From: an uncultured Desulfurococcales archaeon
GTDB taxonomy: Archaea > Thermoproteota > Thermoprotei_A > EX4484-217-1
Assembly (NCBI GenBank): GCA_964526225.1
Contig: CAZGLL010000001.1
Coordinates: 58,903 to 122,902 of the forward strand
DNA: 64,000 nucleotides
Direction of reading: 5' to 3'
The notes beneath the pieces are model-generated. The model worked only from the letters and a program-made list of their open reading frames with translations. It had not been told where the DNA came from and ran no database searches. Made by a program: the position numbers and the translations under genes. Within the stretch, counting starts at the first letter, position 1. Each line of letters opens with the position of its first letter. Of the stretch, positions 31,702 to 58,691 are shown piece by piece.

Positions 31702-31770
31702 CAGTTTGACCTCTAAATGATTCTTTCCTACGTTCTTTCCTAAGTTTAAACTATTGTATCTAACTTTCGT

Positions 31771-33716: not shown

Positions 33717-33742
<26 letters not shown>
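33455..33742 (+). CDS. Small winged-helix protein with a C-terminal Cys cluster
   Basis: 95 aa. wHTH-like segment followed by CTETVCTKCPLRKACP. Confidence 0.4.
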
Positions 33743-34946
<1,204 letters not shown>

Positions 34947-54414: not shown

Positions 54415-55458
54415 TTGCACAAAATTACACAATCTTACATTCTTAAGGTGCTTAAAGAAGTTAGGGTTAAAAGCAAAATAGCCTCCAAACAATTACCTAA
54501 AATCGAAGACGTAGTTTATGATGACAATAATAATATCCTTTATATCATTGTTAGTGATAGACCTGATAGGAGCGCATTAATAGGGTATGGAGGTTTAATA
54601 ATTAAGGAAATAGGGAGAAAAATAAACGTTAATGAAATATCAGTTATTGCAAAAACAGATCTTCTCGTTAAAAGGAAGCGTATTAGCGAATCTATTATGA
54701 AAGCTAAAGCTATTATGAGAAGGAGGAACATTCCGCAAGACATTAAAGAATTTCTTGAAATACTCATAGAACAACTTAAGCTGGAGAAGAAATTTCCTCC
54801 GAGAACAGTAATTAGAGAAGAAAAGGCAAAGAACATAAAAATTTTAGTTGCTTACTCTGGGGGAGTTGATAGTACTGCAACTCTTGTTTTGCTCAAGAAC
54901 ATGGGCTTTAATGTTAAAGCGGTAACTGTAGATCCGGGACCTTTCATTTTACCTAATTGGGTTAGGGATAATATTGCAAAGGCTGTTAAGTTGCTATCTG
55001 TTGAACATGAGTTTATAAAGCCTATAGTTGATTTTCATGAAATAATAGAATATGCTAAAGAAGGAACCCATACGCCTTGTAGCCTATGTTACCCTGCGCT
55101 TGTAAATAGCATTTTTACGTATGCCGTAGAAAACATGTTTAGTATTGTTGCATTCGGAAACTTAATATCTACATCGAAATATTCACTAGATTTCCCCTTG
55201 AGAGAAAAGTTTTTGCTTAGAATAAACTTGCCTGGAGCATTTGCTCTCACAAAGCATGATACTAAACTGTTATCTAAAGGAATTGTTAATTGGAAGCCTT
55301 TGTATGGCTGTCCGCTACTTAGAAATTCTATGAAGAACCATAGATGGATGAGATATATAGCTATTGAAAGAATTCTTAGAGAAGTACGAGCGGGAATTTT
55401 AGAACCCATGGATGGGCTAAGATATATCAAGTCAATTTTAAAACTAGTAGGGAAATGA
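54415..55458 (+). CDS. PP-loop (N-type ATP pyrophosphatase) family protein with an N-terminal KH-like domain
   Basis: KH-like GxxG (IGYGGLIIKEIGRK). PP-loop SGGVDS. C-terminal Cys pairs (CSLC; CP). Confidence 0.5.
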   Translation: MHKITQSYILKVLKEVRVKSKIASKQLPKIEDVVYDDNNNILYIIVSDRPDRSALIGYGGLIIKEIGRKINVNEISVIAKTDLLVKRKRISESIMKAKAIMRRRNIPQDIKEFLEILIEQLKLEKKFPPRTVIREEKAKNIKILVAYSGGVDSTATLVLLKNMGFNVKAVTVDPGPFILPNWVRDNIAKAVKLLSVEHEFIKPIVDFHEIIEYAKEGTHTPCSLCYPALVNSIFTYAVENMFSIVAFGNLISTSKYSLDFPLREKFLLRINLPGAFALTKHDTKLLSKGIVNWKPLYGCPLLRNSMKNHRWMRYIAIERILREVRAGILEPMDGLRYIKSILKLVGK

Positions 55459-55472
55459 GAAGTTAAATGAAA

Positions 55473-56915
55473 CTATTTTAACGCTAAAACTACATCATAG
55501 CCTTTTTTCGTTAACTTATAAAGCTTCTTTTTACCAACCTTTCTACTTTCAACAAGACCTGCTCTTTCTAATTCCTCTAGGTGCTGATAGATTGCTTGTA
55601 CGGAAACTGAGAGACCTAGAGTCTTCCATATTTTGTAACCATGTAGTTCTCCATGCTCCCTTAAAACATTCAGTATTAGTGCTTTAGTGCTTAAACCCGC
55701 TAATCGTGAACTATATTTCCTTCTTGAAGGCTCCTTGCTGTACGTTAAAGGAGCCTTAAGCCCGGTAGCGGGGGCTAGAACAACTACGTTTTCGGACTTA
55801 GAGATATTCTCGGTTTTTCTAACGAAAACTGCCAAGCCAGCGAATGCTGCTGCCCCGGCTGGTTCTATAAATAAACCTTCGGATTTAGCAACAATACTTA
55901 CATAGTTTAATGCTGACGTGTATGTTACCCTTACACCGTATGTGTTAGTATAATTTAGATACTGTAAAACATATTTGAGAAGAGGAGTTTTGCACACATC
56001 AAGCCCTGGAATGTGTTTCTTAACAATCGATGCTTCCTTCTCACATATTACATTGTCTTGCTTTAAGGAATCAACTATTGGTGAACATACGTTTGATTGA
56101 ACAACTAATATTTTAGGCCTTCTTTTTAAAACACCTAAATTCACTAGCTCATCGAATCCGATAAGTGTTGAAAGTAACGTTAAACCCGAGCCCGCTGGCA
56201 TTACGAGCCAATCTATTCTATTAAGTTGCATTACAAGTTCGTAAGCTATTGTCTTCAATCCCTCTATTGATAACGTGTTTTCCTCAGCTGTAGCTTCATA
56301 AACGCCTTCGCTTAAAACCAACTCTTTAGCCTTAACTATGGCTTCGTCAATGATTTTGCCATACTCATATATTTCAGCACCAAATGCTTCCATTTGAAGT
56401 ATTTTTCCGTAATCCGCATTTGACGGAACTACTGCAACACATTTCAGCCCAGCTTTTGCCGAGTAAGCCGATAATGACGCTCCTAGGTTTCCATCAGTTG
56501 CACAAACAAGCTTCTTTGCTCCAACGTGTTTCGCATGCGAAACTATGAGAGTAGCAACGCGGTCTCTGAAACTACCTGTAGGGTTTCTCGTTTCATCCTT
56601 AATAAAAACATTTTCAAGCTTTATTAACGAAGCATAATTCTTAGCTTCAATAAGTGGTGTAAATCCCTCATCTAGTGAAACAATATTTTCGCTAGGTATT
56701 TCAGGTAGGTAATTAGAGAACCTCCAGATACCTAGTTGCTTCGTAAGTTTAAACTCCTTTTGCCTAGGAATTTCTGCTCTCACAAGGCTACCACAGTATG
56801 TGCATCTAATGCTTGGTTTTACAAAAGCCCTACCGCATTTTGTACAGTAGAATTTTACGTTATTCTTTCTCTTTAATGAAGTCTTCAAAACTAATCTCCT
56901 TCCCTCTCTTAACAA
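55473..56915 (-). CDS. Threonine-synthase-like PLP enzyme with N-terminal zinc ribbon and C-terminal PadR-type winged-helix domain
   Basis: CTKCG...CTYCG ribbon. PLP-Lys motif PTGSFRDR. C-terminal approx. 80 aa (LILNVLREHGELHGYKIWKTL...LEELERAGLVESRKV) is PadR-like. The start is uncertain because of a 56-bp overlap with the next gene. Confidence 0.55.
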   Translation of the reverse strand: MLREGRRLVLKTSLKRKNNVKFYCTKCGRAFVKPSIRCTYCGSLVRAEIPRQKEFKLTKQLGIWRFSNYLPEIPSENIVSLDEGFTPLIEAKNYASLIKLENVFIKDETRNPTGSFRDRVATLIVSHAKHVGAKKLVCATDGNLGASLSAYSAKAGLKCVAVVPSNADYGKILQMEAFGAEIYEYGKIIDEAIVKAKELVLSEGVYEATAEENTLSIEGLKTIAYELVMQLNRIDWLVMPAGSGLTLLSTLIGFDELVNLGVLKRRPKILVVQSNVCSPIVDSLKQDNVICEKEASIVKKHIPGLDVCKTPLLKYVLQYLNYTNTYGVRVTYTSALNYVSIVAKSEGLFIEPAGAAAFAGLAVFVRKTENISKSENVVVLAPATGLKAPLTYSKEPSRRKYSSRLAGLSTKALILNVLREHGELHGYKIWKTLGLSVSVQAIYQHLEELERAGLVESRKVGKKKLYKLTKKGYDVVLALK

Positions 56916-57255
56916 TCTTTATCTTTAAAGGAAGTCTCACATTAAGGCCTAGTGCTAAAAATAGCTGATAAAGTTCATAAGCGTCAATTGATTTAACATT
57001 GTTTTCAACTACATATTTTGCTAAAGCCTCTATTACCTTATCGATTACCTGCGGAAATTGCTCTTCAGCCGCTTTTAGAACTTCTACTGCTTTTTCATCG
57101 CTTAAAACCGAAAGCACTATTTGTCTAGGATCTTTCTTCTCTTCTTCTCTAGGCTTTCCCTTAGAGAGCATTTTCTTTTGAAGCCTAAGCAGTTTTAACC
57201 TTATCTCCGGCGGTAAATCTTCAAACGTCATTTGAGACCCTCCCGGGATTCTCAT
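56860..57255 (-). CDS. PDCD5/TFAR19-like dsDNA-binding protein
   Basis: 131 aa with ...EDLPPEIRLKLLRLQKKML... and a charged helical core. Confidence 0.45.
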   Translation of the reverse strand: MRIPGGSQMTFEDLPPEIRLKLLRLQKKMLSKGKPREEEKKDPRQIVLSVLSDEKAVEVLKAAEEQFPQVIDKVIEALAKYVVENNVKSIDAYELYQLFLALGLNVRLPLKIKIVKRGKEISFEDFIKEKE

Positions 57256-57319
57256 TTATTCTCATACTCTACTAAATACCTAACCGTTTTATAATGTAAT
57301 GTATTAATCCTAAATATAG

Positions 57320-57661
57320 GTGTTGCCAGTGGTTTTGGGTGCCATAGCGTATGTTATGAATTTAGATGATTTCGCGAAGATAACAAAAGGTGCTCAAAGG
57401 TTCTTCTGTATAAGAACGAAGGAAATGGTGAGAGAAGTAGGTTTACACCTAATATGCACCGCTAAGATCGACGATACCATATATGTTTACGAAGAACTCG
57501 ACATTGTAGATAATCCCAAGGAGTATGAGGAACGTATTAAGTACTTTAAGAAAAAGGTCAAAGAGAAAATGCCCGATGCCGTAATGGGCTTCGTTGCTTT
57601 CGATGTTAGACAGCTTCAAGAAGCACTGAGTTTTGGAGAAAGCGTAGCGAGCCCCTTCTAA
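57320..57661 (+). CDS. Hypothetical protein
   Basis: 113-aa ORF. Confidence 0.3.
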   Translation: MLPVVLGAIAYVMNLDDFAKITKGAQRFFCIRTKEMVREVGLHLICTAKIDDTIYVYEELDIVDNPKEYEERIKYFKKKVKEKMPDAVMGFVAFDVRQLQEALSFGESVASPF

Positions 57662-57683: not shown

Positions 57684-58691
57684 ATGGTTGAAGTTACCGT
57701 TTCAGCTCCAGGGAAGGTAACTCTCTTTGGTGAACACGCAATAGTTTACGGTGAACCAGCAATAGTTACAGCTATTTCTAGAAGGCTATACGTTAAAGCT
57801 AAACCTAGAAACGATAAGAACCTTAAGATTTCAGCCATGGACCTAAAGATTCCTGGGGTAATTCTTACTTTTGTAAGCGACACAGAAGAGCTAATATTAG
57901 AAACGGATTATGGAAGAGTTGTTTCAGCAGTAAGCTATGTTAAAAAAGCCATCGAACTAACTGCAAACTACATCGGAGAATTTAGAGGGGTAGATATTGA
58001 AGTTCGCTCATCAATGCCCGTAGGTGCAGGCTTAGGCACAAGCGCTGCTGTTGCTGTAGCAACGGTAGCTGCATACGCTTACGCACTAGGTCATGAGCTT
58101 TCTAAGAAGGAAATAGCTAGGCTCGGACATAAAACAGAACTGGAGGTTCAAGGTGCTGCTAGCCCTATGGACACGTCTATAGCAACCTATGGCGGAACAA
58201 TATATATTAAGCCGGAAAAATCGGAGCCTATAATTGAGCATTTAAACCTTACTGAAGAATACCCTTTAGTAATAGGTTATGTTGAAAGGAAAAGTACAAC
58301 AAAGGAGTTAGTAGCCAAAGTTAGAAAGCTAAAGGAGAAAAAGCCGGAAATAATAATGCCAATAATAAAGCTCATAGGGGTATTAACAGAGAATGCTAAA
58401 AAAGCTCTCAAAAGCGGAGACGTTGTTGAACTAGGTGAGCTAATGAATATAAACCATGGACTTCTAGATGCTCTTGGTGTTTCAACAAAAGAACTTAACG
58501 ATTTAGTTTATGCAGCAAGACAAGCAGGAGCATTGGGTTCAAAACTTACTGGAGCTGGAGGAGGTGGTTGCATGATAGCTTTAGCTCCAGGAAGAGTCGC
58601 CGAAGTAAGTACAGCTATAGACATTTTAGGAGGCCAGCCTATGGATGCCCGAATGTCTGCCAAAGGGTTAACCGTTGAGGTAAAGAAATAA
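57684..58691 (+). CDS. mvk: Mevalonate kinase (GHMP kinase family)
   Basis: N-terminal SAPGKVTLFGEH. GHMP motif PVGAGLGTSAA. 335 aa. Confidence 0.85.
   Translation: MVEVTVSAPGKVTLFGEHAIVYGEPAIVTAISRRLYVKAKPRNDKNLKISAMDLKIPGVILTFVSDTEELILETDYGRVVSAVSYVKKAIELTANYIGEFRGVDIEVRSSMPVGAGLGTSAAVAVATVAAYAYALGHELSKKEIARLGHKTELEVQGAASPMDTSIATYGGTIYIKPEKSEPIIEHLNLTEEYPLVIGYVERKSTTKELVAKVRKLKEKKPEIIMPIIKLIGVLTENAKKALKSGDVVELGELMNINHGLLDALGVSTKELNDLVYAARQAGALGSKLTGAGGGGCMIALAPGRVAEVSTAIDILGGQPMDARMSAKGLTVEVKK

Follow-up and report, generated by a model that had tools for sequence, protein, structure and literature searches.

The 64,000-nucleotide stretch of an archaeal contig analyzed here (the window) carries, in addition to a canonical threonine synthase (ThrC) gene, an unbroken open reading frame (ORF) on the reverse strand, at 55473..56915, which encodes a second ThrC-like protein fused to a C-terminal PadR-type domain. 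The question raised by this gene is whether its product is an enzyme, a transcription factor, or both. A preliminary description had proposed either a metabolite-sensing transcription factor on a fold-type II scaffold of the kind that binds pyridoxal 5'-phosphate (PLP), or an enzyme regulating its own pathway. We conclude, with moderate confidence, that the fusion is not an enzyme but a repressor that senses a ligand and probably governs the uptake and synthesis of vitamin B6. The first proposal gains support from the family-wide loss of the catalytic lysine, a genuine winged helix-turn-helix (wHTH), a palindrome conserved in the promoters of relatives, and purifying selection. The second was not supported, because the Schiff-base lysine and the ThrC substrate-phosphate positions are all replaced. 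Coordinates refer to the window, and residues of the fusion protein are numbered along the 471-amino-acid (aa) product that starts at TTG 56888.

The PLP-lysine motif had been thought to be kept, with Arg in place of the residue next to the lysine. The motif NPTGSFRDR is indeed present, but its Arg (Arg108) occupies the position of the Schiff-base lysine itself. It aligns with K61 of Thermus ThrC (1uim), a position obtained by counting along the chain, and with the motif lysine of Aquifex ThrC (2zsj). Among 120 fused homologues, this column holds Arg in 106, Lys in 13, and Met in one (P0085). The residues corresponding to T88, S155, R160, and N188 of Thermus ThrC, which we take to hold the phosphate of O-phosphohomoserine, are also exchanged, as is that corresponding to T85 (Table 1). 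The family retains the Phe or Tyr before the lysine position, the Asp-Arg after it, N87, and a glycine-rich loop in which GSGG/LT replaces GNAGN, the ThrC loop that presumably binds the PLP phosphate. Since the Schiff-base lysine and the assumed phosphate positions have been replaced while the pocket is well kept, the fusion is, judged by its sequence, a conserved pseudoenzyme joined to a wHTH and not a second threonine synthase.

Profile scores were consistent with this assignment. The best NCBIfam match of the fusion was NF004170/PRK05638 ("threonine synthase"), aligned over profile positions 3 to 438 of 442 with 359.4 bits against a cut-off of 421, and TIGR00260 (thrC) gave 135.8 bits against 167.1, so that the protein falls short of all ThrC equivalog cut-offs. 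The bona fide thrC that had been noted elsewhere in the window clears TIGR00260 and encodes NPTGSFKDR, ASTGN, NPWRLEGQKT, and GNAGN. Its product matches NF004170 only over profile positions 2 to 358 of 442, whereas NF004170 spans the PadR domain as well; what this model captures is therefore the fusion family, and it probably propagates an incorrect product name.

The domain architecture of the fusion is well defined. Pfam recognized a PALP domain (E value of 3e-65) and a C-terminal PadR domain (PF03551; 34.1 bits against a cut-off of 27), and the N-terminal four-cysteine zinc ribbon (C15, C18, C29, and C32) is retained, as had been described. A full-length AlphaFold model, built from 66 sequences, had a mean predicted local distance difference test (pLDDT) score of 88.9 and comprised the zinc ribbon, a ThrC-like core, a disordered linker at residues 379 to 398, and a helix-helix-helix-wing-helix domain with pLDDT values around 90 to 96; the C-terminal domain modeled alone reached 89.8. 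In Foldseek searches, the top matches of the whole model were the threonine synthases 2zsj, 6nmx, and 1uim (template modeling [TM] score normalized to the target of about 0.8); identity to solved ThrC proteins is about 30%. The C-terminal domain retrieved LmrR and Bacillus subtilis PadR bound to operator DNA (TM scores of 0.77 to 0.89; at most 33% identity to PadR). The AIYQHL motif of the recognition helix is invariant throughout the family. A PadR-like wHTH of about 80 aa had been suspected at the C terminus. The last 75 or so residues fold as a winged helix in the models, and the Pfam score, predicted fold, and structural matches agree: the wHTH is genuine.

The best 120 homologues measure 380 to 493 aa, mostly 435 to 480 aa, and nearly all contain both Pfam domains. 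The fear that the fusion might be an artifact of a missed frameshift between two genes can be dismissed, since the same two-domain architecture is common to more than 100 homologues of 435 to 480 aa. Members with a named source all belong to Thermoproteota (Thermoprotei, Desulfurococcales-like archaea, and Bathyarchaeia) and are called "threonine synthase" or "pyridoxal-phosphate dependent enzyme" in databases. A search of genome contigs with the window protein alone returned one close relative and bacterial ThrC proteins, and nothing further. In a neighbor-joining tree, the 13 Lys-bearing proteins (P0039, P0049, P0050, P0060, P0061, P0067, P0075, P0076, P0089, P0090, P0097, P0100, and P0102) formed one clade nested among the Arg-bearing ones, a sequence-based pattern that suggests reversion to Lys. 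Loci of this clade (L028 to L030, L037, L043, L053, L072, L081, and L088) show peculiarities of their own: several have two tandem copies of the candidate operator described below, in the variant form TATTATAGTTATAACTATAATA, together with a shorter S-component (about 165 to 171 aa) and a downstream gene for a RIO-type kinase.

What the regulator might control is indicated by its gene neighborhood. We gathered 100 loci, called their ORFs, and clustered the neighbors. In 46 of the 64 loci that had at least 800 bp of downstream sequence, the next gene on the same strand encodes an S-component of about 250 aa (PF07155; E value of 3.7e-32) of an energy-coupling factor (ECF) transporter. This arrangement is common to the Arg and Lys variants, and precomputed gene calls with Pfam labels agree with it independently. 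A complete ECF module, comprising S, A, and T components, was found at two loci. In about 24 to 31 loci, the S-component gene is followed by a gene of the AIR-synthase/HypE/ThiL type (for example, L010 8225..9232 and L097 7240..8256), which lies directly 3' of it, apparently in one operon. Its product matches HypE and ThiL best, below every cut-off, and may phosphorylate the imported vitamin as a noncanonical kinase.

A perfect 22-bp palindrome, TAGTATAGTTACAACTATACTA, was first seen while the PdxS match in the short contig L091 (Pfam, 1.6e-15 on a 52-aa fragment) was being checked; it lies there between the regulator gene and pdxS. In relatives, a near-invariant 22-bp palindrome, TAGTATAGTTNNAACTATACTA, is found 5' of the S-component gene, on the 3' side of a TATA-like box; the general form of the site is TAGTATAGTT-NN-AACTATACTA. 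With few changes, the palindrome occurs directly 3' of the regulator gene in about 65 loci, and it precedes a PdxU2-like S-component gene in about 60. A 22-bp matrix derived from 42 distinct sites was scanned over all fetched loci at a threshold of at least 14 bits and yielded 70 matches, every one just 5' of an S-component gene or pdxS. In L074 and L076, the regulator and S-component genes are kept apart by another gene, and the palindrome remains with the S-component gene, which shows that it does not serve as the regulator's terminator. Alignment of 59 distinct sites revealed that an element resembling a transcription factor B recognition element (BRE) and TATA box (gAAAAgC, then TTAAAA or TAATA) abuts the 5' arm and that the start codon follows 10 to 35 nt past the 3' arm, other flanking bases being unconserved. 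Variants that keep this core occur in more divergent Thermoprotei loci (L011, TATATAAAGTTTTAACTTTTTGA; L094, TATTAAAGAAAAAACTTTAATA), the Thermoprotei form being TAAAGTT-NN-AACTTTA. When the window and six loci were scanned with Rfam, tRNAs were the only matches; no family was found at the palindrome, and no thiamine pyrophosphate (TPP) riboswitch. We consider the palindrome a putative operator for the fusion protein. Its position between TATA box and start codon, beside a gene for a wHTH protein with presumed twofold symmetry, is the one classically seen with archaeal repressors that act by preventing the recruitment of polymerase, and by this analogy repression would be expected.

The region 5' of the regulator gene was searched as well, for exact inverted repeats and by an expectation-maximization palindrome search; apart from BRE/TATA-like signals, nothing convincing emerged there, and the palindrome sits downstream of the regulator, before the next gene. 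One upstream candidate, CCTTTAAAGATAAAGG, which precedes the start codon in the clade of the window, was dismissed, being part of the coding sequence of the upstream gene, where it encodes LPLKIK.

The link to vitamin B6 comes mainly from the transporter. Among solved structures searched up to an E value of 10, the sole match of the S-component was chain S of 4hzu (E value of 1e-12); neither riboflavin nor other S-component structures were matched. This chain belongs to HmpT, an ECF transporter of Lactobacillus brevis that binds pyridoxamine (PMC4860826), and PdxU and PdxU2/HmpT are B6 transporters assigned to PF07155/COG4720 (PMC9997740). Four of the six conserved pocket residues of HmpT are kept in the S-component (E41, Y120, N140, and Q143). 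A pdxJ gene was observed in the metagenomic contig L034 (2423..2878 on the reverse strand; Pfam, 5.9e-55), convergent with the regulator gene; Archaea have been reported to possess only the PdxS/PdxT route (PMC9997740). Given the PLP-fold scaffold, the kinship of the transporter with HmpT, and the single-contig links to pdxS and pdxJ, we infer that the effector is a form of vitamin B6 such as PLP or pyridoxamine phosphate (PMP). Threonine and phosphohomoserine, the ligands suggested earlier, are disfavored by this genomic context of a PdxU2/HmpT-like transporter, pdxS, and pdxJ.

We hypothesize that these elements would work together as follows. The sensor would be the ThrC-fold domain, devoid of the Schiff-base lysine (Arg108) and of the phosphohomoserine-phosphate residues, which would bind a small molecule. 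ThrC enzymes are dimers, so that two C-terminal PadR winged helices would be positioned for a palindromic operator. Regulators of the family would sit on the operator between the TATA-like box and the start codon of the HmpT/PdxU2-related S-component gene and, in one contig, before pdxS, and would thereby block the recruitment of RNA polymerase. Because the lysine is gone, the B6 vitamer would be held noncovalently, and when the cofactor is plentiful, the regulator would shut down B6 uptake and synthesis.

Several points weigh against this model of a B6-responsive repressor. The roles given above to T85, T88, S155, R160, and N188 are our assumption. If the Lys-bearing clade, nested as it is in an Arg-bearing tree, reflects reversion, then members of the family need not strictly lack the lysine. 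The links to pdxS (L091) and pdxJ (L034) come from one contig each. Two pocket residues of the S-component are not those of HmpT (K instead of H84 and E instead of Q87), and HmpT was first predicted to carry hydroxymethylpyrimidine (HMP), the pyrimidine of thiamine (discussed in PMC4860826). By eye, PurF-like (amidophosphoribosyltransferase) genes adjoin the regulator or the S-component at two loci (L059 3891..5399 and L074 8145..9626). In the window, tblastn searches for the S-component, the AIR-synthase-like protein, and PdxS found nothing. The 22-bp matrix reached at best 10.7 bits over the 64 kb, against 17 to 34 bits for true sites and up to 13.6 bits in shuffled windows, and operator-core motifs were counted there at chance level. 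The function ascribed to the window copy thus depends on homology. Binding of the protein to the palindrome, its action as a repressor, the nature of the ligand, and the genes targeted in the window organism are all inferred.

The same architecture and operator could serve another cofactor precursor, chiefly HMP or its phosphate (HMP-P), or another vitamin carried by PF07155 transporters. HMP resembles pyridoxamine, and the early HMP-transporter prediction for HmpT (PMC4860826), the departures at H84 and Q87, the AIR-synthase/ThiL/HypE-like nature of the conserved downstream gene, a true ThiL gene close by in L012, and the purF genes that adjoin the system in L059 and in L074 all fit such an effector; PF07155 also includes riboflavin S-components. 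We nevertheless regard this alternative as unlikely: a perfect operator copy lies before pdxS, a gene dedicated to PLP synthesis, PdxJ adjoins in L034, and the sensor scaffold is a PLP-binding fold that has kept its glycine-rich loop as well as the aromatic residue preceding the lysine position. Moreover, the failure of the S-component to match riboflavin or other S-component structures and the lack of a TPP riboswitch or other Rfam element argue against other cofactors. Less probable still is control of DNA binding by threonine or O-phosphohomoserine, perhaps tied to the neighboring threonyl-tRNA synthetase (ThrRS) gene. The sensor domain descends from ThrC, a ThrRS gene is nearby in the window and at every locus of its clade, and in the 13 members with Lys, PLP could be bound covalently and an amino acid detected by way of an external aldimine, as in GabR. 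However, the ThrC substrate-phosphate positions are replaced, one of them by a near-invariant Glu (117 of 120), the ThrRS neighborhood is limited to one syntenic clade and absent from the Bathyarchaeia loci, and the operator precedes no gene of the threonine pathway.

We see very little chance that the fusion is a working PLP enzyme that also binds DNA, be it a second threonine synthase or another autoregulating enzyme of beta/gamma-replacement. Its relatives are named "threonine synthase," NF004170 spans the entire fusion, and the pocket is highly conserved; yet the Schiff-base lysine is missing in 107 of 120 members together with the substrate-phosphate residues, scores remain under all equivalog cut-offs, and the genome already has a canonical ThrC. 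It is equally improbable that the gene of the window lineage is a functionless relic left after the loss of its target, or that its wHTH has a role outside transcription. As would be expected of a relic, the neighboring S-component gene has disappeared and the 64 kb contain no operator. However, compared with relatives that likewise have no S-component gene, both domains show a ratio of nonsynonymous to synonymous substitution rates (dN/dS) of about 0.1, the window copy keeps all family-invariant residues, and the gene is intact over a clade of 55 to 92% identity. The repressor reading, with its B6 effector, remains the one that we prefer.

The S-component gene is absent from a clade made up of the window, L001, L006 to L009, and L012 to L015. 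In this clade, the regulator gene is preceded by an overlapping gene for a 123-aa protein and faces genes for a PP-loop ATPase and ThrRS. The pair of small gene and regulator was found in all 10 clade loci and in L094, whose gene order is identical (GlmS, GT87, mevalonate kinase, small gene, regulator, PP-loop gene, ThrRS, and AsnC), save that an S-component gene lies between the regulator and the PP-loop gene (tblastn, 3.5e-43). In the window, 14 bp are left at that place, and the transporter gene has therefore been lost in its lineage. The regulator has stayed under purifying selection: dN/dS against L001 was 0.10 overall (0.065 in the ThrC-like domain and 0.12 in the wHTH) and 0.076 against L006. 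Because these values are low and every invariant residue is kept, the window protein is functional and presumably acts on targets elsewhere in the genome. Two resemblances to the operator core were noticed in the window. The sequence ATAGCTGTAACTAT at about 57762..57775 is inside the mevalonate kinase gene, where it encodes IVTAI, and was set aside as a low-scoring coincidence; a core match at 31742, before a gene for a TPR protein, scored poorly on the full matrix.

The start of the fusion gene is probably TTG 56888 rather than TTG 56915. We prefer it because it is preceded by a Shine-Dalgarno-like GGAG, because the closest homologues (P0001 to P0003) begin at the equivalent residue, and because gene calls in public assemblies contain precisely this 471-aa product, on three contigs, the longest of 204 kb; a 480-aa version is absent from the public collection. 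On inspection of the sequence, no comparable element was seen before TTG 56915. With this start, the overlap with the upstream gene shrinks from the 56 bp given in the preliminary description to 29 bp (56860..56888). The label "PDCD5-like" for that upstream gene found no support: neither Pfam and NCBIfam nor PDB sequence searches gave a significant match to its product, the best being Pox_VLTF3 with an E value of 0.003. Upstream of it, the divergent intergenic region 57256..57319, which separates the small gene from a gene for a 113-aa protein (57320..57661), is near-identical in relatives whose regulators are only 55% identical. It reads CACCTATATTTAGG...ATTATAAAACGGTTAGGTAT and contains two TATA-like boxes and a CCTA-N4-TAGG repeat. 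On the other side, the convergent PP-loop ATPase gene (54415..55458 on the forward strand; 347 aa) shows weak matches to the tRNA thiolation enzymes MnmA, TtuA, and LarE (E values of about 1e-6 to 1e-7). Its product has an N-terminal extension of about 135 aa without a family match. In L012, a MoaD/SAMP-like gene stands in place of this convergent neighbor.

Table 1. Coordinates of the fusion gene, its parts, and related features in the window
Feature	Positions	Strand	Basis and remarks
ThrC-like/PadR fusion coding sequence, probable	55473..56888	-	471 aa plus stop; longest ORF would begin at TTG 56915
Shine-Dalgarno-like GGAG	56896..56899	-	7 nt 5' of TTG 56888; read directly from the sequence
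N-terminal zinc ribbon	56793..56846	-	C29/C32 invariant, C15/C18 at least 90% conserved (alignment A1); weak Pfam zf-ChsH2 match; short strands in the model
ThrC-fold domain (fold-type II, PALP), catalytically disabled, proposed ligand sensor	55773..56681	-	Pfam, Foldseek, ThrC model scores below cut-off
Motif NPTGSFRDR	56559..56585	-	Arg108 codon AGA at 56565..56567; replaces the PLP Schiff-base lysine
Thermus ThrC T85, replaced by N/D in the fused family			Column table, 120 homologues
Thermus ThrC T88, replaced by L/M/H in the fused family			L in the window protein; column table, 120 homologues
Thermus ThrC S155, replaced by E in 117 of 120	56283..56285	-	Codon of Glu202 in the window protein; column table
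Thermus ThrC R160, replaced by V/S/A in the fused family			S in the window protein; column table, 120 homologues
Thermus ThrC N188, replaced by S/G in the fused family			S in the window protein; column table, 120 homologues
Glycine-rich loop GSGLT, at the position of ThrC GNAGN	56178..56192	-	Alignment columns; G233 and G235 invariant in alignment A1
Flexible linker, residues 379 to 398	55695..55754	-	pLDDT below 50 in the full-length model
PadR-type wHTH, residues 401 to 471	55476..55688	-	Pfam; helix-helix-helix-strand-strand-helix topology; Foldseek matches to LmrR and the PadR-DNA complex 5x11
Recognition helix, motif AIYQHL	about 55563..55601	-	A432, Y434, Q435, H436, and L440 invariant in alignment A1
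Upstream codirectional gene	56860..57231	-	123 aa from ATG 57231; longest ORF extends to 57255; homologues begin MTFEDL
Gap between the stop codon of the fusion gene and that of the convergent PP-loop ATPase gene	55459..55472	.	14 bp; ECF S-component gene here in L094
Canonical threonine synthase of the same genome (comparator)	33717..34946	-	TIGR00260, 293.2 bits against 167.1

The fusion invites comparison with several known kinds of regulator. MocR/GabR-type proteins, including PdxR, likewise join an enzyme-like PLP-binding domain to a winged helix. The regulon of PdxR consists of pdxST, pdxK, and the transporter gene pdxU, and MocR proteins are reported to be absent from Archaea (PMC5320631). 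This regulon overlaps the gene set linked to the operator described here (the gene for the PdxU2-like S-component and pdxS). However, PdxR and its relatives combine an N-terminal GntR wHTH with a fold-type I aminotransferase domain that has its lysine, whereas the present proteins combine a fold-type II domain, which bears Arg, with a C-terminal PadR wHTH, and the Pfam and NCBIfam matches of the fusion included neither GntR nor aminotransferase families. The family is thus an analogue and not a homologue of MocR/PdxR. With ThrC (TIGR00260 and NF004170/PRK05638), it shares the fold and the N-terminal zinc ribbon, the latter as in archaeal ThrC, but it lacks the Schiff-base lysine and the phosphohomoserine-phosphate residues, scores below the cut-offs, and has an additional DNA-binding domain. 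The PadR regulators B. subtilis PadR and LmrR resemble it in the fold of the wHTH with its C-terminal helix, and in the palindromic nature of the candidate operator. Classical PadR proteins are small, have an N-terminal wHTH, and dimerize by a C-terminal helix or domain; here, the wHTH, with a single helix after the wing, is appended to an enzyme-derived domain of about 380 aa, which is presumably the dimerizer.

The same design logic is found in ThiR and RbkR, archaeal vitamin regulators in which a wHTH and a domain derived from an enzyme that belongs to the pathway or lies close to it control genes of vitamin synthesis and uptake. They differ in having ThiN-like and riboflavin-kinase-like folds, in responding to other vitamins, and in the lack of a PLP-enzyme scaffold. 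Literature searches for a ThrC-PadR fusion or a fold-type II regulator returned no published description, and in a survey of archaeal fusion proteins, cysH-thrC was the only thrC fusion mentioned. The family itself already has an NCBIfam model, under the name of threonine synthase. For these proteins that name is very probably wrong.

Hundreds of archaeal proteins annotated as "threonine synthase" or "PLP-dependent enzyme" are without the catalytic lysine, and metabolic reconstructions of Bathyarchaeia and Thermoprotei that count such fusions as ThrC are probably wrong. Transporters and alternative kinases for vitamin B6 are acknowledged gaps (PMC5320631 and PMC9997740). Tentatively, and at somewhat less than an even chance, we suggest that the family may be an undescribed archaeal class of B6-responsive repressors, a counterpart of PdxR, in which a fold-type II PLP enzyme has turned into a reversible cofactor sensor, the exchange of Lys for Arg letting the ligand come and go; its regulon would then mark the PdxU2-like importer and the AIR-synthase-like protein, a candidate B6 kinase, as missing pieces of salvage. 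The model is testable, since it specifies the 22 bp of the operator and narrows the possible ligands to a few. If true, the fusion would be the first archaeal regulator of vitamin B6 known to us. It would also illustrate how a cofactor site can become a ligand sensor by losing its covalent anchor, for which the clade that appears to have reverted to Lys would offer a natural comparison.

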